64,000 bases of DNA from contig DAOUDP010000001.1 of the NCBI GenBank assembly GCA_034431195.1, positions 179,385 through 243,384 on the forward strand. The letters are read 5' to 3'. This document shows positions 2,478-51,835 of this stretch, in pieces. The notes under the pieces are model-generated. The model made no database searches, was not told where the DNA came from, and worked only from the letters and a program-made list of their open reading frames with translations. Positions within the stretch are counted from its first letter, which is position 1; every line of letters begins with the position of its first letter. Source of the stretch: Dehalococcoidia bacterium (GTDB taxonomy: Bacteria > Chloroflexota > Dehalococcoidia > GIF9 > AB-539-J10). The position numbers and the translations under genes are program-made.

Positions 2478-2555
2478 GCGTCCCTGTAGCTCAATTGGAT
2501 AGAGCGGCTGCCTTCTAAGCAGCGGGTTGTGGGTTCGAGTCCCGCCAGGGACGCC
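2478..2555 (+). tRNA. tRNA-Arg (anticodon TCT)
   Basis: Cloverleaf with acceptor stem GCGTCCC/GGGACGC, D-arm TAGCTCAATTGGATAGAGC, anticodon loop CTTCTAA, T-arm GGGTTCGAGTCCC. Confidence 0.85.
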
Positions 2556-2665
2556 ATGAGGTTTGTGGATTGTAGAATATGGTTCACTGTCGCAATACAC
2601 ATTCTCTGGGATGCCCTAGTAGCAGCGGGGATTTTCTGCAATAATGTTCAGGAGACGGGCGCGAT

Positions 2666-30179: not shown

Positions 30180-32816
30180 ATGTTGGGCTGGTTTACCAAA
30201 TTAATCGATTCTAACGAAAAAGAGCTGAAGCGACTTCAACCTTTGGTATCCCATATAAACTCGCTTGAGCCCGATTTTGAAAAACTCACCGACGGTGAGC
30301 TTCGCGACAAAACAGATGAGTTCAGGACCAGACTAAAGGATGACGAGGATTTAGATGACCTCTCATCTGAAGCTTATGCTGCAGTGAGAGAGGCTGCCAA
30401 ACGAACGATAAAGCAAAGACATTTCGATGTTCAATTAATGGGTGGAGTTGTCCTTCACCAAGGCAAAATAGCTGAAATGGCAACTGGAGAGGGAAAAACG
30501 CTGGTGGCTACATTGCCGCTTTACCTCAACGCCCTTACCGGGGAAGGATGTCACTTAGTAACCGTCAACGATTATCTCGCGAAGCGTGATTGTAACTGGA
30601 TGGGGCCTATCTACCATGCCCTCGGAGTAAGCGTGGCATGCATCAATGCCATGCAATCTCCAGACCAACCTTCACCTTCTTTCCTTTATGACCCCGATTT
30701 TGACTCCGGAGACCCGAAATGGAGGCAGCTTCGCCCCATCACCCGCCGCGAGGCTTATGAAGCAGATATAACCTATGGCACAAATAACGAGTTTGGCTTT
30801 GATTACCTCAGAGACAATATGGTCCTGGACTTATCCCAGTGCGTCCAGCGGGAGCTTAACTATGCCATCGTAGATGAAGTTGACAGCATCCTCATCGACG
30901 AAGCCCGCACACCACTGATTATAAGCGGAGCTGCTGAAGAAGCCACCCAGAAATACTACACCTTCGCTCGGCTCGTTTCTCGCCTCAAAAAAGATGACGA
31001 TTACACCGTTGACGAAAAGACACGAACATGCTCACTCACGGAAATCGGCATCGGCAAGATGGAGAAGATGCTCAAGAGCGCCGGATTGCTTAAGGCTCCC
31101 AGCTTTTACGACCCCTCCAACTACTCACTCACCCGATATCTGGAGAATGCCCTCAAGGCTCATGCTCTGTTCAGAAGGGACAAAGACTACATGGTTAAGG
31201 ATGGGCAAGTTATCATCGTTGATGAATTTACCGGAAGGTTGATGTTTGGCAGAAGGTATTCTGAGGGCTTACACCAGGCTATCGAAGCCAGGGAAGGTGT
31301 AAAGGTACAGCGGGAAAGCATCACTTTAGCCACCATCACCTTCCAGAACTATTTCCGCCTGTACCAGAAATTAGCGGGGATGACTGGCACCGCCGCCACC
31401 GAGGCTGAAGAGTTTCACAAGATTTATAAATTGGAGGTGGTGGTTATACCCACCAACAAACCCCTGGTCCGCACTGAACATACTGACCAGGTTTACAAAG
31501 ATGAGAAGGCCAAGTTTGAAGCTGTCGCCAGAGAAATTGAGCATTGGCATAAGCAAAAAAGACCGGTGCTCATTGGCACAACCTCCATTGAGAAATCGGA
31601 GACGTTAAGCAACTTATTAACCAGGAAAGGCGTACCTCACCAGGTGCTGAATGCCAAGCATCATGAGAAGGAGGCAGCCATTGTTGCTCAGGCTGGTTGT
31701 TTAGAAGCAGTAACTGTAGCTACAAATATGGCTGGACGCGGTGTGGACATCATTCTTGGAGGCAATCCTGAAAAACGTGATAGCAAGGGATGGCTTGAGG
31801 AGCATAACAAGGTGGTTGAACTTGGCGGCCTCCATATTGTAGGCACTGAGCATCATGAAGCCAGACGCATTGATAACCAGCTCCGCGGCAGAGCAGGGAG
31901 ACAGGGAGACCACGGCAGTTCCCGCTTCTTTGCCTCTTTAGAGGACGAAGTTGTCCACCGCTTCGGCGGCGACCGCATCGGAGGACTTATGCAATGGGCT
32001 GGCCTGGGAGAGGATAAGCCTCTCGAGCATCCTATGGTCAGCAAGGCGATGACAAATGCCCAAGTGCAGAGCGAGGGATATAACTTCGATATTCGCAAAC
32101 ACCTTGTTGAGTATGATGATGTAGTCAATCAGCATCGCGAGGTAATTTATGACGAAAGGAAGAAAATACTGAGCGGTGCCGACCTTAAGGCAAATATAAT
32201 GTCTATGATTACAGATGAAATTCAAACCGTGGTGGACGCTCATATCAACCACAATTTAAGTGAGCCCGATTTATCAGGATTGCGTGAAGACATTTCCGCC
32301 ATTTTCCCCTCACCACCTGACATTGCCAGCCTTTCTTCTGTCATTGCAAGCCGAAGCCCTGAGCGAAGCGAAGGGGCAGCGAAGCAACCCGAGTTTGACA
32401 GCAAGGAAATTGCCGACAAGCTAACCAATTACGCCATTGATCTTTACGAGCAGAAGGAGCAGGAAATAGGTGCCGAAAACATGCGCCTTATCGAGCGTAT
32501 GGTAATGCTTCGCGTTATTGACCGCTTATGGATGGAGCATCTTACCACCATGGAGGACATGCGGCAGGGAATAGGCTTGCGAGCTGTGGGACAGCAAAAC
32601 CCGCTGGTAGTGTACAAAAGGGAAGGAGGCATTCTTTTTGATGGTCTTCTGGCTAGCATCCAGCATGATGTCGTCCGCAGCATCTATCGGGTCAGCCTGG
32701 TTAAAAAAGAGCCGCCACTCAAAAAACAGGCTGTAATAGCCGGTAAGAAAGTGGGCCGCAACGACCCCTGCCCCTGCGGGTCAGGCAAGAAATATAAACA
32801 CTGCTGCGGAAGGTAG
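30180..32816 (+). CDS. secA: preprotein translocase ATPase SecA
   Basis: 878 aa with DEAD-like motor motifs and a C-terminal zinc-binding [14 protein letters not shown]. Confidence 0.95.
32785..32813 (+). repeat. direct repeat copy A (the native secA 3' end); attL-like
   Basis: GCAAGAAATATAAACACTGCTGCGGAAGG recurs at 34410-34438 with a single mismatch. Confidence 0.8.
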
Positions 32817-32824
32817 GATTAGGT

Positions 32825-33802
32825 ATGGGGAATCATGTACTACTTGTAAGTAGAGAGCATTTTAATAAGTGTCTTAAGTATGGAATATATGGTGCTCCCT
32901 CTCACCCACTTGAGAGAATTAATTCGGAAATTATAGCTGGTTCTGAAGCTATTAAAGCAGGAGACTTCATATTCTTCTATGTTAAAAACATTGGAGTATA
33001 TGGTTTGTGGAGAGCAACAAGTCGTCCGTTCTTTGACGAGACTGATATTTGGGGTGAAAAAGACCAGAAGTATCCTTATAGGATCTGCTTCGCACCCTCA
33101 ATTAGGTATTTCTCAAAGCCAATTGCCCTTAGTGATGTTTTAGATTTGCGAGATAGGGGAAAGATATGGACATTTGATTTAGGAGCTATCCGCGCAAAGA
33201 ATCACAATCCGCTAACCACTGATGAAAGCAAAGACTTAATACGCCTTTTCCTAAGGAATAATCCTATTTTTCATTCAGTTGCATCCATACCAGAACCGTA
33301 CCCAGCAGGTAATATCACACTGCCATTAAGCCTAGAATCAGATAGTAGGGGACGTATAAGATATGAGGGCTTCTTAAATGCTTGGTTTATGAGGAGTTTT
33401 GTTGATGGTAGATTCAAGGAAATCATTGGCGAATATAGAGATTTTCTAAACTTTGTCCCTACCTCTTTTAATAAAGTAATGGATATTTTTCTTACGCATG
33501 TCACCTCAGTTGACGGTGTTGATATCCTTCATAAATTTACTTGCATCGAGCTAAAAACAGGAATATGCACTGAAGAAGATTTGAATCAGATCATTAAATA
33601 CGAAAATTGGCTCGTAAGGAAGCTAGCTAATGGTGATAGTGAAATGGTCCAAAGCGTCCTCGTTGCATTCGATTTTCAAGACAAAGTATTGGAATATGTG
33701 CAGAAGAGAAGAACGATAGAGGAAAAGACAGTCAGGTTGCTAAAATATCGAGTGACTAAAGAACAAAACGATATTATATTAACTGAAATTGAATTCGGAT
33801 AG
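32825..33802 (+). CDS. EVE (PUA-like) domain fused to a PD-(D/E)xK nuclease; candidate modification-dependent (type IV) restriction endonuclease
   Basis: N-terminal AGSEAIKAGDFIFFYVKNIGVYGLWRATSRPFFD resembles the EVE/PUA-like GD-x-hFFYHS...G core; C-terminal VDGVDILHKFTCIELKTG fits a D...E-x-K motif; low GC. Confidence 0.55.
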   Translation: MGNHVLLVSREHFNKCLKYGIYGAPSHPLERINSEIIAGSEAIKAGDFIFFYVKNIGVYGLWRATSRPFFDETDIWGEKDQKYPYRICFAPSIRYFSKPIALSDVLDLRDRGKIWTFDLGAIRAKNHNPLTTDESKDLIRLFLRNNPIFHSVASIPEPYPAGNITLPLSLESDSRGRIRYEGFLNAWFMRSFVDGRFKEIIGEYRDFLNFVPTSFNKVMDIFLTHVTSVDGVDILHKFTCIELKTGICTEEDLNQIIKYENWLVRKLANGDSEMVQSVLVAFDFQDKVLEYVQKRRTIEEKTVRLLKYRVTKEQNDIILTEIEFG

Positions 33803-34289
33803 GAGGTTTGACGCAATGTCGGATGAAGCTATCACCGGAGTTTACAACTCTGACATTTCTGATGACGCTATTCATGAGCTTGCTCCGTCTATCCTTTTGA
33901 GCGAACAGAGTTCAGAGTTCACGCTTAACCAGGGTAAATATGCCTATCGGGTTAAAGGGGGGAAGGATGGACACCTATACTATAAAAAGAGGGCTAACGA
34001 CAGTTGGATCCTTATTGCAAACTGGTGCCTTTATGGTCTTTATATTGTAATCCGTTATAGGAAACCATTATGGCTAAGGCCAATGTATCGGAGCTTGTTT
34101 AGCAAAATGAATTTTGTTTCTATCACCTTCAGCGACCATAGTATTGAAGCGATGGGCACAGATGGACAAATTTTAAGAGGTAGACGGCTCCGCCTCAGTC
34201 CTCCTTTTGCTTTTGAAGAAGTTATGATGGAGAAGTTTGGTTATTCCCTACAGAAGGCGGAAGTGCTTCGATCGAAATTGGATTTGTGA
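33789..34289 (+). CDS. hypothetical protein; start possibly at 33816. Its 3' end overlaps a frameshifted remnant of the small gene at 36631-36843
   Basis: ORF only; the C-terminal AEVLRSKLDL resembles the N-terminus DVVEEFLDCEL of the 36631 gene. Confidence 0.3.
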   Translation: MNSDRRFDAMSDEAITGVYNSDISDDAIHELAPSILLSEQSSEFTLNQGKYAYRVKGGKDGHLYYKKRANDSWILIANWCLYGLYIVIRYRKPLWLRPMYRSLFSKMNFVSITFSDHSIEAMGTDGQILRGRRLRLSPPFAFEEVMMEKFGYSLQKAEVLRSKLDL

Positions 34290-34320
34290 TTTAATTGTTG
34301 AAGTGAAACCCTCCAAAGAT

Positions 34321-34389
34321 TTTTGCCAGTATGTTGAGGACGATTATTACGAGTGGCTGAAGGATAACTTCAAGTCCTTCTTCGACCAT
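34321..34389 (+). repeat. direct repeat copy B (small-gene fragment); B' at 36727-36793
   Basis: About 69 bp of similarity, mostly synonymous differences. Confidence 0.75.
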
Positions 34390-34409
34390 GGAAATCTAGA
34401 CCGGGAGCA

Positions 34410-34438
34410 GCAAGAAATACAAACACTGCTGCGGAAGG
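34410..34438 (+). repeat. direct repeat copy A' of the secA 3' end
   Basis: GCAAGAAATACAAACACTGCTGCGGAAGG versus the secA end; 28 of 29 identical. Confidence 0.8.
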
Positions 34439-34621
34439 GGAACATAATTCCGAGGGGCTAATTATAATGGAAGCTTGCTTAGGCATTACTATGTTGATAA
34501 ATGCGAAAAGTCTTTCGCTATGCTTGCCACCTTGATTGTTGGGATGGGGAGGAGATTTTAGAGGAGATAAAGGTATGAAAGGTTACAAGGGAAAAAGAAT
34601 AACTTATGGAGGTGCAATAAA

Positions 34622-35629
34622 ATGGAACGAGATTCAAACTTTCAGATGCTGTCTTGGTTTACAGATCAACATAGAATGGGAAATCTCGATTTAGAGCCTC
34701 CGTATCAAAGAAAAAGTATTTGGAATAATGACTACAAAGTTTATTTCATTGATACGATTCTTCGGAACTTCCCTTGTCCAACCATATTTCTAGCAGTTGA
34801 GCTTAGTTCAAGTGGACTTACTAAATACCATGTTGTGGATGGTAAGCAAAGACTTTTAACGGTTTTCGAATTTGTAAACGATGAGTTCACTACATCAGAG
34901 ATATACAGTGACCCTGATTACGCCGACAAGTATTTTTCACAATTGCCAGCCAAGGTAAAGACTCGTTTCTGGGGATACAAGTTTACAATAGAATATCTTA
35001 AAACCGAAAGTAGAAAAGACTTAAATGATTCTTTTGACAGGTTGAATAGGAATGTTGCTCGGTTAAATAAACAAGAACTGCGACATGCGCGACACGCTGG
35101 AGCATTCATCACCTACGTAACCCAGTTATCAGACGATCCATTTTGGAAAGATATGGGGATATCTACTCCCTCAAGAATAAGAAGAATGCTAGATATTGAA
35201 TATGTTTCGGAGATATTTTTAGTGGTTATGCACGGAATCAAAGACGGTAGAGACCATTTAGACGAATATTTTGCAGTGTACGATGATGAAATTCCAGACT
35301 TAGAAGAAAACAGAAAAAAATATGAAGTATGTAAGGATCTCATTGCAAAGCTAGATGTATACAAAACACGGTATAGCAACCTTGCAGACCTCTATTCTTT
35401 ATGGTCTGGGATGTCTGAATTATATGACGAGAATGGTGGTAGTTTAGAGATAGCCGTTGAAAGAACAAGAACAAAACTATTACAGTTTGCAGATAGAATC
35501 CGAGGTGACGTAGATGAACAACGAGTTCAAGCCTATGCATTGGCAGTGTTGCAGGCGTCTAATAGTATTAAAAGTAGACAGACTCGTGAGAATATATTGA
35601 AGGGACTTATTGTTGTAAAAAGAAAATGA
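34622..35629 (+). CDS. DUF262 (GmrS/ParB-like NTPase domain) protein
   Basis: EPPYQRKSIWNN...FIDTILRNFPCPTIFL...HVVDGKQRLLTVFEF, the DGQQR-type motif of DUF262; a second block FDRLNRNVARLNKQELRHA; low GC; 4-nt overlap with the downstream gene. Confidence 0.8.
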   Translation: MERDSNFQMLSWFTDQHRMGNLDLEPPYQRKSIWNNDYKVYFIDTILRNFPCPTIFLAVELSSSGLTKYHVVDGKQRLLTVFEFVNDEFTTSEIYSDPDYADKYFSQLPAKVKTRFWGYKFTIEYLKTESRKDLNDSFDRLNRNVARLNKQELRHARHAGAFITYVTQLSDDPFWKDMGISTPSRIRRMLDIEYVSEIFLVVMHGIKDGRDHLDEYFAVYDDEIPDLEENRKKYEVCKDLIAKLDVYKTRYSNLADLYSLWSGMSELYDENGGSLEIAVERTRTKLLQFADRIRGDVDEQRVQAYALAVLQASNSIKSRQTRENILKGLIVVKRK

Positions 35630-36585
35630 TAATTCCCAGATCCATTGAAGCTTTCTACGGCAAAGTAGCAGAGTCTTTATATGTTCTTAAGTACAACATT
35701 GACCAACCACTTAAGAATATAGCTGATTCATTAAATATCAGGTATGTCCACGCGAGGATAAAGCCAAAAGAGAGCTTGATGGCCAAAATAGAGAAAGAAG
35801 GGTGTAAGAATCCAGCCGATGAAATTGAGGATCTAGTCGCTTGTAGATTAATCGTGAATAACATATCTGAGATAGGTTATGTAAAAGAGAAGATAAAACA
35901 ACTATTCAATATAGAGGATGAAAAATCTAAAAGATCTCGCTCACCAAATGAATTTTTGTACGATGCCATTCATTTAATATTAAGTTTTAAAGACAGTCCC
36001 TTTATAAGTAATAAGGACATCTTAGGGAAGAAATTTGAATTGCAAATTAAAACCAGCCTACAAAATGCATTAGATGAAGTAACACGCGGCGAAATTTATA
36101 AAACAGATATATTAACCTGGGAAAAAGATAGGACTGCAAGCGAGTTAAGAGCAAATCTTGAATTACTAGATACATTGTTAAAGGATTTCCCGAAGATAGT
36201 TGCTATTCAAGAGGAGAGAGAATATGAACTATATCAAAATAGGAACAAGATAATAGCTTTACTTAAAGATGTTTGGAGCGCTGAAAAATTACCTGACGAT
36301 TTACGGAGGGCAAGCATTGTTATTGAGGAGTACCTGAAACTGGCTGAGGCAAAGGTAGAAGATTTATCTAGTTGGCTAAATCTTGACAGGTACAGAAATG
36401 CTGTTAAGGCTGTCTCAATTACTCCGTGTCAAATAATATTGATTATCTTGTTCCTAGAAAAAGGGGCTTTCCTTAACAACGTAAGAAGACAAAATAGATG
36501 TTTGCTCATAACCGATGAGATGATAGATATATGTCCCGAACTTAAGGAAATAGACCTATCATATCGCGTGAACATCGATTACTAG
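35626..36585 (+). CDS. RelA/SpoT-homolog (RSH) synthetase-domain nucleotidyltransferase (small-alarmone-synthetase/toxSAS-like)
   Basis: Syn motifs: RYVHARIKPKESLMAKIEKEG (basic ATP-binding motif), IEDLVACRLIV (D-x-x-G/A-x-R-h-h), YDAIHLILSF, FELQIKTSLQNALDEVTRGEIYK (E-h-Q-I-R/K-T...YK). Confidence 0.75.
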   Translation: MIIPRSIEAFYGKVAESLYVLKYNIDQPLKNIADSLNIRYVHARIKPKESLMAKIEKEGCKNPADEIEDLVACRLIVNNISEIGYVKEKIKQLFNIEDEKSKRSRSPNEFLYDAIHLILSFKDSPFISNKDILGKKFELQIKTSLQNALDEVTRGEIYKTDILTWEKDRTASELRANLELLDTLLKDFPKIVAIQEEREYELYQNRNKIIALLKDVWSAEKLPDDLRRASIVIEEYLKLAEAKVEDLSSWLNLDRYRNAVKAVSITPCQIILIILFLEKGAFLNNVRRQNRCLLITDEMIDICPELKEIDLSYRVNIDY

Positions 36586-36630
36586 GGACTCAGCAAGGGT
36601 TAACCAAATACTTATACAAGGTAGCAAAAG

Positions 36631-36843
36631 ATGCTTGATAGAGATGTAGTTGAAGAATTCCTTGATTGTGAACTTGAGGGTATAGAAATTCCTGCGGATA
36701 TTTCCAAGGAACAGCTTGTAGAAGCTTTTTGTCAGTATGTTGAAGATGATTACTACGAATGGCTGAAGGATAACTTCAAGTCGTTCTTCGACCACTGCAA
36801 CCCAGATTGGGAGTGGATAAGGGAGAAGCTTAAGAACCAGTGA
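36631..36843 (+). CDS. small hypothetical protein (70 aa), intact copy of the duplicated small gene
   Basis: ORF with a partial diverged copy at 34237-34400; its stop overlaps the polX start. Confidence 0.45.
   Translation: MLDRDVVEEFLDCELEGIEIPADISKEQLVEAFCQYVEDDYYEWLKDNFKSFFDHCNPDWEWIREKLKNQ
36727..36793 (+). repeat. direct repeat copy B'
   Basis: Matches 34321-34389. Confidence 0.75.
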
Positions 36844-38564
36844 GAAACACCGCTATCGCCAAAGTATTCAGCGATATAGCAGACCTCCTCGAGCTCAAAG
36901 GTGAGAACCAGTTCAAGATTCGTGCTTACCAGAAGGCAGTTCGCGCTATTGAGCACTATCCCAAGGAAATAAGAATTATGATTGACGAAGGGGAGGACTT
37001 GAAGAGTATCCCCGGGGTAGGAGACGCAATAGCCAAAAAAACAACCGAACTGGTGAAGACGGGAAAACTGGAATACTACGAGAAACTTAAAGCCGAGTTT
37101 CCCGAAGGGATAACTAATCTCCTCGATATACCGGGGATTGGCCCAAAGACAGCTAACAAACTCTGCTCCGAACTGGGGATAACTTCAGCAGATAGCCTGG
37201 AGCAAGCGATAAAGGATGGCAGCGTGGCCACGCTGTTTCGTCTTGGTGAAAAGACCGCCAATAATATCCTCCAGCAAGTCGAGGCCTCCCGCCGCAAGGA
37301 CCAACGCATCTCTATCGGGGAGGCTTTGCCTATCGTCGAAGAAATACTCAGTGCTCTCAACTCTGTCCCCGGGGTGAGAAATCTAACTTACGCTGGAAGT
37401 CTGCGCCGCTTCCGAGAAACATTGGGCGACATTGACCTTATGGGCACCGTCGATAACCCCCAGAAAGTTATGGACGCTTTTGTCTCGTTACCTATTGTAG
37501 GGCAGGTTTTAGTCCAGGGACCCACTAAATCAAGCGCCATAGTCTCCGGTGGTTTGCAAGTCGACTTAAGACTGGTAGAACACGAGGCTTTTGGGTCACT
37601 GCTTCAATATTTCACCGGAAGTAAACAACATAATATTTCTTTAAGGGAAAGAGGGCGAAGGCAAGGATTAAAATTGAGCGAATATGGCATCACCGATATT
37701 GCCACAGATAAGCTGGAGAAATTTGCTGATGAAGAGAATTTTTATCACCGACTGGGGATGCAGTATATTCCCCCCGAGCTTAGAGAAGATCAAGGCGAGG
37801 TGGAAAAGGCTGAACGGGGAGCCATCCCCAGGCTTGTAGAGGTGTCCGATATAAAGGGAGACCTCCATATGCACACCGATTGGAGTGATGGGCATAGCTC
37901 CATCAAGGAAATGGCTCTAGCGGCTAAAAAATTAGGGTATCAGTATATTGCCATCACCGAGCATTCCGGTGGGCGCGGCATCGCCCACGGGCTTGATGTT
38001 GAACGGCTAAGGAAACAGATTGAGGAAATCAAAAAGGTCAATGAATACATAGATGGCATTCAAGTGTTCAGTGGCATCGAGGTTGATATCCGAGCAGATG
38101 GGACTCTGGATTTACCCCACGAAATTTTGGCAAAGTTGGATGTAGTTATCGCTGCGGTGCATTCAGCGATGAACCAAAGCGAGGGAAAAATGACCCAGAG
38201 AGTACTAAGCGCTGTGGAGGACCCCGATGTCGACATTATTGCCCATCCTACCTGTCGTCTTCTGGGCGAGCGTGAACCTATAGCCCTTGACCTGGAAGCG
38301 GTTTTTCGCACCGCTGTCAAGAACAACAAAATCATGGAGATAAATGCCATGCCCGACAGACTTGACTTGAATGATATTCATGCCTCCAGGGCTAGAGAAC
38401 TAGGTGTGAAGCTTGCTATCGAGACCGATGCCCATGCTGTCTCCCACCTTGATTTTATGAGGTTTGGAGTCGGCATGGCGCGGCGAGCCTGGTGTGAGCC
38501 TCAACATATAGTAAATACTCTGCCCCTGGCAGACGTGCTCACCTTCCTGAATGTGAGCAGATAA
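36840..38564 (+). CDS. polX: DNA polymerase X family protein with a C-terminal PHP phosphoesterase domain
   Basis: N-terminal NxxIAxxFxxIAxLLExxGENxFKIRAY helix-hairpin-helix region; PolX palm; C-terminal PHP (DLHMHTDWSDG...). Confidence 0.9.
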   Translation: MRNTAIAKVFSDIADLLELKGENQFKIRAYQKAVRAIEHYPKEIRIMIDEGEDLKSIPGVGDAIAKKTTELVKTGKLEYYEKLKAEFPEGITNLLDIPGIGPKTANKLCSELGITSADSLEQAIKDGSVATLFRLGEKTANNILQQVEASRRKDQRISIGEALPIVEEILSALNSVPGVRNLTYAGSLRRFRETLGDIDLMGTVDNPQKVMDAFVSLPIVGQVLVQGPTKSSAIVSGGLQVDLRLVEHEAFGSLLQYFTGSKQHNISLRERGRRQGLKLSEYGITDIATDKLEKFADEENFYHRLGMQYIPPELREDQGEVEKAERGAIPRLVEVSDIKGDLHMHTDWSDGHSSIKEMALAAKKLGYQYIAITEHSGGRGIAHGLDVERLRKQIEEIKKVNEYIDGIQVFSGIEVDIRADGTLDLPHEILAKLDVVIAAVHSAMNQSEGKMTQRVLSAVEDPDVDIIAHPTCRLLGEREPIALDLEAVFRTAVKNNKIMEINAMPDRLDLNDIHASRARELGVKLAIETDAHAVSHLDFMRFGVGMARRAWCEPQHIVNTLPLADVLTFLNVSR

Positions 38565-51354: not shown

Positions 51355-51579
51355 ATTACACCCGCCCTATCAAATATTCGGGACACTCTACCTTGAACTC
51401 CAGAGTTTGTCAATCAAGCTGTATCTGTTCATAATGTAACCAACACGTGTGACCGAAATCACGATTCCCTTGCGCATGTTATAGCTATCTTTAACTTTGT
51501 CCAGTCAACCTCTCTTGACAAAGGGTGGGCTTGCTACATAAAATATAATAGAACTGAATAAGTGAAAGGCTGCGAACAG

Positions 51580-51835
51580 GACTAGTACAGTCTGAGGCGG
51601 AGTTTAGAGAGTCGGGTAAGGTGTAAGCCGATACTTGCGCAAGACTGGAATGGACCTGGGAGCTGCAAACCGAAAGGCTACAAGGCTGAGTAGGCTTTGT
51701 CGGTAGGGCACCGTTAGAAGCCCAGGGTATCGCTCTCAAGTTGAGCTGTATCCGAGAAGAGATAGTCGTAAGACTGAAATGGGGTGGCACCGCGAAGGTT
51801 AGGCCTCTCGCCCCCTGGCGAGAGGCCTTTTTATT
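51580..51835 (+). promoter_or_regulatory. T-box riboswitch leader (Trp-specific) upstream of trpB2
   Basis: Conserved T-box sequence AAATGGGGTGGCACCGCG at 51777-51794; UGG codons in the putative specifier region (ACUGGAAUGGA); followed by an intrinsic terminator. Confidence 0.7.
51801..51835 (+). terminator. Rho-independent terminator of the T-box leader
   Basis: AGGCCTCTCGCC-CCCT-GGCGAGAGGCCT followed by TTTTATT. Confidence 0.75.

Follow-up and report, generated by a model that had tools for sequence, protein, structure and literature searches.

The gene that lies immediately downstream of secA in a 64,000-nt stretch of Dehalococcoidia DNA (contig DAOUDP010000001.1; hereafter the window) encodes a protein, EVEnuc, that by its sequence is a real, uncharacterised two-domain enzyme, in which a predicted modified-base reader (an EVE domain) is joined to a predicted DNA-cutting domain. 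EVEnuc is probably a modification-dependent (Type IV-like) restriction nuclease that consists of one polypeptide, needs no nucleotide and resides in a variable defence slot. A modification-dependent restriction enzyme was also what a sequence-only reading of the gene had proposed, and the proposal is supported by the conservation of the PD-(D/E)xK residues and by the restriction and defence genes that alternate with EVEnuc in the slot. As in Type IV enzymes, the modification sensor (EVE) and the nuclease (PD-(D/E)xK) are found in one chain, no cognate methyltransferase accompanies the gene except in a single family member (locus L079), and the setting is that of a defence island or variable slot, with a DUF262 and RelA/SpoT-like gene pair adjacent in the window. 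No methyltransferase domain is encoded by the window genes from secA to PolX, and a methyltransferase was not recovered as a conserved neighbour when the genes around EVEnuc were clustered for 21 loci; together with the variable slot of restriction genes this argues for a single-chain, Type IV-like enzyme.

The open reading frame contains both peptides quoted in the sequence-only reading, AIKAGDFIFFYVKNIGVYGLWRATS (aa 42-66) and VDGVDILHKFTCIELK (aa 229-244). Its Shine-Dalgarno sequence, GGAAGG, falls within the final codons of secA, the EVEnuc ATG follows the secA stop after a gap of 8 nt, and no terminator-like site is found between the two; EVEnuc is probably co-transcribed with secA. The low GC content claimed for the gene was borne out, with GC and GC3 of 0.374 and 0.328 as compared with 0.494 and 0.537 for secA and 0.492 and 0.520 for PolX, and the low-GC stretch of the window spans about 32.8 to 36.8 kb (coordinates of all features are collected in the table). 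In all of the 41 loci compared, EVEnuc has a foreign composition, its GC being lower than that of the flanks. Promoter and terminator scans of the locus returned nothing above shuffled expectation, and tRNA and Rfam scans gave no candidate integration site near it.

Table. Features of the secA-PolX interval, in window coordinates
Feature	Position	Strand	Remarks
secA	30180..32816	+	conserved left flank of the slot; upstream in Dehalococcoidia loci
EVEnuc	32825..33802	+	325-aa ORF, ATG start; EVE domain fused to PD-(D/E)xK nuclease
EVE domain (UPF0310/PH1033-type, PUA-like)	32825..33274	+	N-terminal, aa 1-150
NucS/RecB-like PD-(D/E)xK nuclease domain	33320..33799	+	C-terminal, aa about 166-325 (~160 aa)
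E181 codon	33365..33367	+	conserved acid just ahead of first core helix (H184-193)
D220 codon	33482..33484	+	predicted catalytic Asp, start of second core strand (VMDIF); strand 219-229 in model
E242-L-K244	33548..33556	+	predicted active-site ExK; aligns with ELK of NucS and EndoMS
Q255-x-x-x-Y259	33587..33601	+	RecB/NucS-type motif; helix after ExK strand; aligns with Q and Y of NucS SQMKRY
157-aa basic protein ("partner")	33816..34289	+	tightly coupled; GGAGG; ATG 13 nt past EVEnuc stop
3' remnant of second, diverged small70 allele	34316..34407	+	92-nt direct repeat, 85% identical to 36722-36813
29-nt copy of secA 3' end	34410..34438	+	97% identical to 32785-32813; junction between two slot alleles
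DUF262/GmrSD_N protein	34622-35629	+	second cassette; Pfam GmrSD_N 5e-19
RelA/SpoT-like nucleotidyltransferase	35626-36585	+	second cassette; Pfam RelA_SpoT 2e-13
small70, 70-aa acidic protein	36631..36843	+	stop overlaps PolX start by 4 nt; pI 4.1
PolX (HHH_8, Pol-beta thumb, PHP domains)	36840..38564	+	conserved right flank; Pfam, synteny

The N-terminal EVE or PUA-like core had been described as some 120 residues long; the domain is present, and its extent has to be revised to about 150 residues. Searched on its own, the window protein stays below the threshold of the Pfam EVE profile PF01878 (16.8 bits, cutoff 23, E 0.007), a shortfall that was counted against a restriction function. At the level of the family, PF01878 is matched by 24 of 48 diverse members (best 1e-9) and the EVEnuc family profile matches PH1033 (E 2e-19) and MJECL36 (4e-15). 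Single-sequence searches were nearly uninformative, with significance coming only from the profile of the diverse family alignment A5: against the PDB (phmmer) the window protein gave only spurious armadillo-repeat matches, and against PHROGs it gave nothing. Among aromatic residues that might line a pocket for a flipped modified base, Y22 and Y85 (YPYR) reach at least 90% conservation among close family members and align to W22 and the YPYR of PH1033; Y22 is not conserved across the wider EVEnuc family. A helix at aa 132-145 is the proposed linker between the sensor and the catalytic domain.

The catalytic domain follows the helix-strand-strand-strand-helix-strand core order of the PD-(D/E)xK fold. 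D220, E242, K244 and E181 are invariant among 49 close homologues (alignment A1) and at least 90% conserved in alignment A5 (48 sequences at 20-59% identity), where Y259 never varies and the majority of sequences have Q255. The sequence-only reading was to be abandoned if the PUA-like fold, or conserved acidic and lysine residues, were missing; a PUA-like beta-barrel is found, and the PD-(D/E)xK residues are near-invariant down to 20% identity. Its D...E-x-K motif was correct as regards the ExK (E242 and K244), while the aspartate has to be reassigned to D220 from the VDGVD segment, of which D230 and D233 are hairpin residues without conservation across the wider family. The structure model is weak over aa 209-234, D220 included (pLDDT below 50), and this, too, was counted against a restriction function.

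A QxxxY motif in the helix after the ExK strand is the signature of the RecB family, as known from the RecB, Cas4 and NucS nucleases. Between the EVEnuc family profile and NucS there is a match at 1.4e-3 that brings ExK and QxxxY into register and is limited to the C-terminal domain (profile positions 247-304). The Mrr_cat profile, which had been suggested for this region, is matched neither by the window protein at E<=1 nor by the 48 family members at E<=0.01; the matches of the nuclease domain among these members are NucS_C, YhcG_C and HSDR_N_2. By these profile comparisons, the nuclease is NucS/RecB-like and not Mrr-like (PF04471). Identity with NucS/EndoMS as an equivalog was considered and rejected, as the NCBIfam NucS model gives 11.5 bits against a cutoff of 216 and the N-terminal domain is an EVE domain.

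In Dehalococcoidia the interval from secA to small70 and PolX is a variable slot. When 73 loci were sampled through small70, the gene at the equivalent position fell into about 21 clusters, and the alternatives include GmrSD_N with HNH, GmrSD_N, an N6_N4 methyltransferase, a TdeIII restriction enzyme, HerA, HATPase_c_3 and a second EVE-nuclease family. Because the whole interval between secA and PolX varies in related genomes, the earlier description of EVEnuc as the first gene of an island downstream of secA is essentially correct, and because related bacteria fill the slot with other restriction enzymes, EVEnuc is most likely another modification-dependent restriction nuclease. The window itself holds two tandem cassettes, joined at a small70 remnant and a copied secA 3' end. 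The remnant matches the small70 genes of many loci (up to 95%), the two copies of the 92-nt repeat differ mostly at third positions as read by eye, and positions 34412-34545 match the secA 3' end and downstream spacer of another locus (L063). The second cassette (34622..36585) is matched in PADLOC by NsnA (3e-35) and PDC-S33 (1e-11), and its pair of DUF262/GmrSD_N and RelA/SpoT-like genes is also found upstream of small70 in two further loci (L096 and L131).

A conserved core or repair gene outside any island had been suggested by the first three homologue contigs (prs-secA-EVEnuc-157aa-PolX), a reading that was dropped because the position proved highly variable when sampled through small70. 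It is distinctly unlikely that EVEnuc is a housekeeping DNA-repair endonuclease whose EVE domain would detect bases that are damaged or non-canonical, after which a NucS/EndoMS-style nick beside the base would follow and the gap would be passed to PolX. The nuclease domain does resemble NucS/EndoMS, and in several Dehalococcoidia the gene lies between secA and PolX, probably co-transcribed with the former, but of 42 loci only 11 have PolX within 3.5 kb of EVEnuc and only 12 have secA within 2 kb, and the adjacency to PolX is explained by the slot, because sister genomes hold restriction and defence genes at this very position. Likewise, the slow, housekeeping-like evolution of the family and the mostly housekeeping genes that surround EVEnuc outside Dehalococcoidia have to be set against its foreign composition at every locus, its patchy occurrence across phyla and the lack of the NucS N-terminal domain.

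Elsewhere, small70 is the usual next gene after EVEnuc, lying directly downstream in 17 of 42 species-level loci from both bacteria and archaea; an all-against-all clustering of 218 neighbour ORFs from 21 loci identified it as the sole conserved neighbour and yielded no conserved third component. The family numbers 2223 matches, 20 of its 70 residues in the window are Asp or Glu (counted from the translation), no Pfam or PDB match was obtained, and the gene often overlaps the preceding one by 4 nt, an arrangement that amounts to translational coupling. In 13 loci the gene that immediately follows EVEnuc is 62-68% identical to the 157-aa partner, which has 338 homologues without a Pfam match and also follows the other EVE-nuclease family. 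With such companions, EVEnuc could be pictured as the toxic or effector half of a module made of two genes, held by small70 or the partner as an inhibitor (an antitoxin or DNA mimic) until infection or stress frees the nuclease for abortive infection or addiction. The acidity of small70, its conservation and coupling, and its occurrence after a distant EVEnuc relative and after the second EVE-nuclease family are consistent with this picture, as is the finding that VcaM4I without its EVE domain and linker is a toxic, non-specific nuclease (PMC7897488). We nevertheless consider such a module unlikely: neither small70 nor the partner is found in 15 of 42 EVEnuc loci, the intact small70 of the window is 2.8 kb away beyond another cassette, with only the remnant following the EVEnuc cassette, and a search for the fold of small70 gave nothing informative. 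Furthermore, small70 also closes cassettes ending in a methyltransferase, GmrSD, HerA or TdeIII and can stand alone, and is therefore not a specific EVEnuc antidote.

A tentative idea, which we hold to be possible though doubtful, is that small70 accompanies mobile restriction and defence cassettes in general, EVEnuc being one of the cargoes of a system for exchanging cassettes that has not been described before. The cassettes that it ends comprise EVE-nucleases, GmrSD-like genes, methyltransferase and restriction-enzyme pairs, HerA and TdeIII, and occur in Dehalococcoidia, Stahlbacteria, Deltaproteobacteria, Scalindua and archaea. It could be a modulator that these cassettes have in common, such as a DNA-mimic-like nuclease brake while a cassette establishes in a new host, or it could instead be a homology anchor for swapping cassettes at the secA/PolX slot. 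As a by-product of the analysis, the finding that small70 closes restriction cassettes of widely differing kinds in several phyla is more novel than EVEnuc.

The EVEnuc family itself was found in Dehalococcoidia, Zixibacteria, Ignavibacteria, Brocadiia, Thermoplasmata and Methanoperedens, a patchy distribution across phyla, and has spread horizontally. Identity across phyla, bacteria and archaea included, is 54-98%, so that the family is unusually slow-evolving, whereas defence EVE domains are described as fast-evolving (Bell, Wolf and Koonin, 2020; PMC7641849); this slowness was counted against a restriction function. One distant member adjoins a Lamassu system, a setting that speaks for a restriction or defence function. 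The distant member at L079 lies directly upstream of an N6_N4 methyltransferase, likewise counted against a restriction function of the modification-dependent kind, and part of the family may therefore work in a methylation-blocked classical mode. No homologue was detected in phage and IMG/VR collections, and a plasmid search returned only two distant relatives, one of which adjoins a Sau3AI and dcm restriction-modification system. In PADLOC-DB 2.0 the window protein matches only PDC-S02 (E 0.012) and the 48 members only PDC-S02 or PDC-S11, weakly (best 1.6e-5), none of these being a significant match to a system model. The missing phage and IMG/VR homologues and the weak PADLOC matches neither support nor contradict a role in defence; that these matches are weak and that no known system claims the family was also entered among the points against restriction.

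EVEnuc belongs to an architecture class that has already been catalogued (Bell et al., 2020; Lutz, 2019), EVE-PD(D/E)XK being a core architecture among predicted Type IV enzymes (PMC7641849). Like these predicted enzymes, it has an N-terminal EVE and a C-terminal PD-(D/E)xK domain in a single polypeptide, a defence-type context and no obligatory methyltransferase. The class was drawn up bioinformatically and contains no EVEnuc-family protein that has been characterised, and EVEnuc is set apart in it by the specific pairing of a PH1033/UPF0310-type EVE domain with a NucS-type nuclease. The modification-dependent EVE-HNH enzymes VcaM4I, whose pocket residues are P24, W82 and Y130, and TspA15I use a catalytic HNH domain in place of PD-(D/E)xK and share only about 10% identity with EVEnuc (PMC7897488; PMC6765204). 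YenY4I (EVE-DUF3427-PD-(D/E)XK) also combines a PUA-family sensor with a PD-(D/E)xK nuclease, and it cleaves DNA weakly, in dependence on modified cytosine, and partially restricts T4gt (PMC6765204); however, it is about 600 aa long, with an additional DUF3427 and a DUF3883-type nuclease, as opposed to the 325 aa of EVEnuc, which lacks DUF3427 and has a NucS-type nuclease. The archaeal and actinobacterial mismatch endonuclease NucS/EndoMS (PDB 2vld, 5gke) carries an N-terminal dimerisation and DNA-binding domain where EVEnuc has EVE, and is a repair enzyme passed on by vertical descent; EVEnuc, in contrast, has a patchy distribution, is richer in AT than its hosts and occupies a restriction slot. 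PH1033 and MJECL36 (UPF0310 archaeal EVE proteins; PDB 1wmm, 2p5d) are stand-alone proteins of about 145 aa without a nuclease.

Bell et al. have proposed RNA as the ligand of several EVE classes and as the target of the related CoCoNuT Type IV systems (PMC7641849, PMC11090510), so that EVEnuc might be imagined to recognise a modified nucleoside of a tRNA, an rRNA or a phage transcript and to cleave RNA with its PD-(D/E)xK domain. This is very unlikely: the nearest relatives of the nuclease (NucS, EndoMS, Type IIS and Type IV restriction enzymes) are DNA enzymes, the alternates in the slot are DNA restriction-modification genes, and the characterised EVE-nuclease fusions act on DNA (PMC7897488; PMC6765204). 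Fusions of PUA-family domains to nucleases, found without nearby methyltransferases, cleave modified DNA (PMC6765204; PMC7897488), which favours a modification-dependent restriction nuclease.

As a modification-dependent restriction nuclease, EVEnuc would bind DNA through its PH1033-type EVE domain and hold a flipped modified base in the pocket; by default the recognised base can be guessed to carry a cytosine or adenine methyl-type mark, and the ligand may be 5mC or 5hmC. The linker helix would join this sensor to the NucS/RecB-like domain, which would cut the DNA nearby with Mg2+ by means of E181, D220, E242, K244, Q255 and Y259, and the enzyme would probably be dimeric, like related enzymes. 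A cognate methyltransferase would be unneeded because the host DNA lacks the mark. A DNA rather than RNA substrate, base flipping, the type of modification and the dependence on it, the oligomeric state and an anti-phage benefit are what we infer for this mechanism.

Modification-dependent restriction enzymes serve as a defence against phages with hypermodified DNA and as tools for mapping epigenetic marks. If EVEnuc is modification-dependent, it would be a compact representative (325 aa) with a metal ion as its only cofactor, and its sequence is so well conserved across phyla that it should be easy to synthesise and test. The structure of PH1033 was solved in 2005 and, to our knowledge, its ligand is still unknown; since the EVEnuc sensor is of the PH1033 type, identifying its ligand would also annotate a family of archaeal orphan proteins. 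We know of essentially no characterised restriction biology in the uncultured anaerobes to which Dehalococcoidia and their neighbours belong, and for this poorly studied phylum the slot between secA and small70-PolX is a ready catalogue of defence genes.

EVEnuc, the 325-aa fusion of an EVE domain to a PD-(D/E)xK nuclease, is encoded by a genuine reading frame that opens with ATG and contains both peptides quoted in the sequence-only reading. The gene starts 8 nt past the secA stop, its GGAAGG ribosome-binding sequence sits within the final secA codons, and a terminator scan found no terminator-like site between secA and EVEnuc or between EVEnuc and the next gene. It is indeed low in GC, as had been remarked (0.374, GC3 0.328, vs 0.494/0.537 for secA and 0.492/0.520 for PolX), within a low-GC stretch of the window at ~32.8 to 36.8 kb. 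EVEnuc GC lies below that of the flanks in 41 of 41 loci (mean gap 11 points), while still tracking host GC (r 0.77).

Features of the secA-PolX interval and of other sites mentioned (L-numbers are sampled loci of other genomes)
Feature	Location	Strand	Remark
secA	30180-32816
EVEnuc	32825-33802	+	first cassette
157-aa partner	33816-34289	+	first cassette
small70 remnant	34316-34407		junction; 92 nt of a different small70 allele, 85% identical to 36722-36813
secA 3' end copy	34410-34438		junction; 29 nt, 97% identical to 32785-32813
Spacer	within 34410-34545		junction; resembles region downstream of secA in allele L063
DUF262/GmrSD_N protein	34622-35629	+	second cassette
RelA/SpoT-like protein	35626-36585	+	second cassette; 4-nt overlap with preceding gene
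small70, intact	36631-36843	+	follows second cassette; stop overlaps PolX start by 4 nt
PolX	36840-38564
tRNA-Arg(TCT)	2480-2556	+	far from EVEnuc locus, unrelated
T-box leader	51563-51818	+	Rfam 102 bits; far from EVEnuc locus, unrelated
Distant EVEnuc family member	L079:2017-3066		HMM E 8e-83
N6_N4 DNA methyltransferase	L079:3076-4005
DCD domain protein	L031:6556-6993		Pfam 8e-20
77-aa ORF	L012:6754-6984
PUA306 proteins	L053:4041-4958; L065:3089-3958		further copies at 16 loci

The N-terminal domain is assigned as PUA-like/EVE, in line with the earlier claim, because a profile built from 48 diverse family members (20-59% identity) aligns across the full domain (profile positions 1-151) with two archaeal EVE proteins, PH1033 (E 2e-19) and MJECL36 (E 4e-15), and 24 of the 48 individually match PF01878; the predicted fold agrees. 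Taken alone, the window protein scores 16.8 bits against Pfam EVE, under the cutoff of 23. As candidate pocket residues, Y22 and YPYR line up with PH1033, Y22 being variable across the wider family. In the C-terminal domain, the modelled secondary structure fits a PD-(D/E)xK core (helices H184-193 and H250-266; strands E207-212, E219-229, E232-243 and E275-281), and the same profile finds NucS (E 1.4e-3) along with EndoMS (E 0.011), placing E242-x-K244 over the NucS ELK and Q255...Y259 over its Q...Y. Residues E181, D220, E242, K244 and Y259 are invariant or at least 90% conserved across the alignment. Of the D...E-x-K motif read from the sequence, the ExK (E242, K244) stands, but the Asp does not lie in VDGVD: D230 and D233 fall in a hairpin between strands and are not conserved beyond the close family, and the motif Asp is predicted to be D220 (VMDIF), at the start of the second strand. 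Model confidence is low at aa 209-234 (pLDDT below 50), so D220 is assigned from conservation and topology rather than from geometry. Mrr_cat, which had been suggested as a check, matched neither the window protein (E<=1) nor any of 48 family members (E<=0.01).

The EVEnuc family comprises >500 proteins of ~325 aa at 67-98% identity, and they are labelled 'EVE domain-containing protein' or 'hypothetical' in some databases. An exhaustive search of 1.84 billion representative proteins yielded only 290 matches to the EVEnuc profile at E<=1e-3; the majority are full-length (320-400 aa), and the two-domain architecture is therefore the family norm. The family has spread horizontally, its hosts at 42 species-level loci including, with 54-67% identity, Zixibacteria, Ignavibacteria, Gammaproteobacteria, Gemmatimonadota, Brocadiia, Thermoplasmata and Methanoperedens. 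The gene immediately upstream of EVEnuc in L031 encodes a protein with a DCD domain (Development and Cell Death, EVE-like); in L012 a shorter ORF that clusters with it by BLASTP takes the same position. The sole family member found beside a methyltransferase gene, a distant one in L079, lies directly upstream of it, with small70, a gene for a 70-aa acidic protein, following.

The first three long contigs all carried prs-secA-EVEnuc-157aa-PolX, and the conserved housekeeping operon that they suggested was overturned by wider locus sampling: secA lies <=2 kb upstream of EVEnuc in only 12 of the 42 species-level loci, and PolX downstream in only 11. That EVEnuc is a damage-repair nuclease acting with PolX is accordingly judged improbable. 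Clustering of 218 neighbour ORFs gave small70 as the single conserved neighbour, and no methyltransferase as a conserved one. When the slot was sampled via small70 (80 metagenome loci, L061-L140), Dehalococcoidia showed small70 directly upstream of PolX, with a 4-nt overlap of the small70 stop and the PolX start, and secA further upstream, while the gene just upstream of small70 fell into ~21 unrelated clusters in 73 loci, mostly restriction/defence related. Cluster representatives include GmrSD_N+HNH and GmrSD_N proteins, an N6_N4 DNA methyltransferase, the Type II restriction enzyme TdeIII, HerA, HATPase_c_3 proteins and PUA306, a second family of EVE-like nucleases that shares a homologous N-domain with EVEnuc (hhalign probability 94%) but has a different C-domain. 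PUA306 occupies 18 of the 73 loci vs 6 for EVEnuc. Its members (~290-306 aa) start with NYWLVVGSPxNW and conserve LDVVW and FEVQ motifs in the C-domain, which suggests a D...ExQ-type site. The stretch from secA to small70-PolX (32817-36843 in the window) is therefore a restriction/defence hotspot with EVEnuc as one alternative cargo. This bears out the description of EVEnuc as the first gene of an island, and nothing else in the context argues as strongly for a restriction role.

The small70 protein (pI 4.1) has >2000 unannotated homologues, no Pfam or PDB relative, and a predicted structure of four helices at modest confidence. Besides the 80 metagenome loci it was found at 13 others (L012, L019, L024, L026, L029, L031, L032, L036, L040, L047, L055, L141 and L143), and in archaea and several bacterial phyla alike it is the last gene of varied restriction/defence cassettes: EVE-nucleases, GmrSD-like proteins, methyltransferase and restriction-enzyme pairs, HerA and TdeIII, as well as a methyltransferase + 264-aa cassette in Stahlbacteria, an HNH + methyltransferase cassette in Deltaproteobacteria and, in Scalindua, a distant EVEnuc relative adjoining Lamassu. 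Since it also stands alone and is absent from 15 of the 42 EVEnuc loci, small70 is not a specific EVEnuc antidote, and it is unlikely that EVEnuc is a toxin with small70 or the 157-aa partner as modulator. No domain was matched in the partner (basic, pI 8.9; 338 homologues), which comes immediately after EVEnuc in 13 loci and after a PUA306-like protein in L149, and which may be an accessory of EVE-nucleases.

In the window the slot holds two cassettes. The DUF262/GmrSD_N protein of the second matches PADLOC NsnA (3e-35) and PD-T4-2_A (6e-19); GmrSD_N is its sole Pfam match, and a nuclease C-domain was not detected. Together with the RelA/SpoT-like nucleotidyltransferase (Pfam 2e-13; PADLOC PDC-S33) it forms a candidate two-gene defence pair, which recurs in L096 and L131. 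Between the cassettes lie the junction elements listed in the table, the small70 remnant differing from the intact copy mostly at third positions and mostly synonymously, as read by eye. The simplest reading is that two slot alleles were joined in tandem.

EVEnuc is probably a Type IV-like restriction nuclease, modification-dependent and made of a single chain: its EVE domain would recognise a modified base in flipped form, and its NucS-like domain would cut the DNA. What we infer here is that the substrate is DNA, that the base is flipped, which mark is read and that cutting depends on modification; an RNA-directed nuclease is very unlikely. Bell, Wolf and Koonin (PMC7641849) already count EVE-PD(D/E)XK among the core architectures of enzymes predicted to be Type IV. 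YenY4I (EVE-DUF3427-PD-(D/E)XK) and EVE-HNH enzymes have been shown to have modified-cytosine-dependent activity, and methyltransferase neighbours are rare for such genes (Lutz et al., PMC6765204), while in VcaM4I structures a hydrophobic pocket takes up the base, 5mC or 5hmC, that the EVE domain has flipped (PMC7897488). By analogy EVEnuc would work like these enzymes, yet it lies outside their families: its sensor is PH1033-type and its nuclease NucS-type, YenY4I is twice as large, and EVEnuc belongs neither to Mrr nor to NucS proper. Against the Type IV-like model stand the slow evolution of the family, whereas defence EVE domains evolve fast (Bell et al., PMC7641849), the distant member adjoining a methyltransferase, and the lack of homologues in phage collections, with only weak matches to PADLOC models. 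The fusion noted in the sequence-only reading is real and its interpretation there largely right, and EVEnuc is an uncharacterised enzyme of a kind known and already predicted. More unusual are the Dehalococcoidia secA/PolX restriction hotspot and the ubiquitous acidic 70-aa protein that ends many restriction cassettes.
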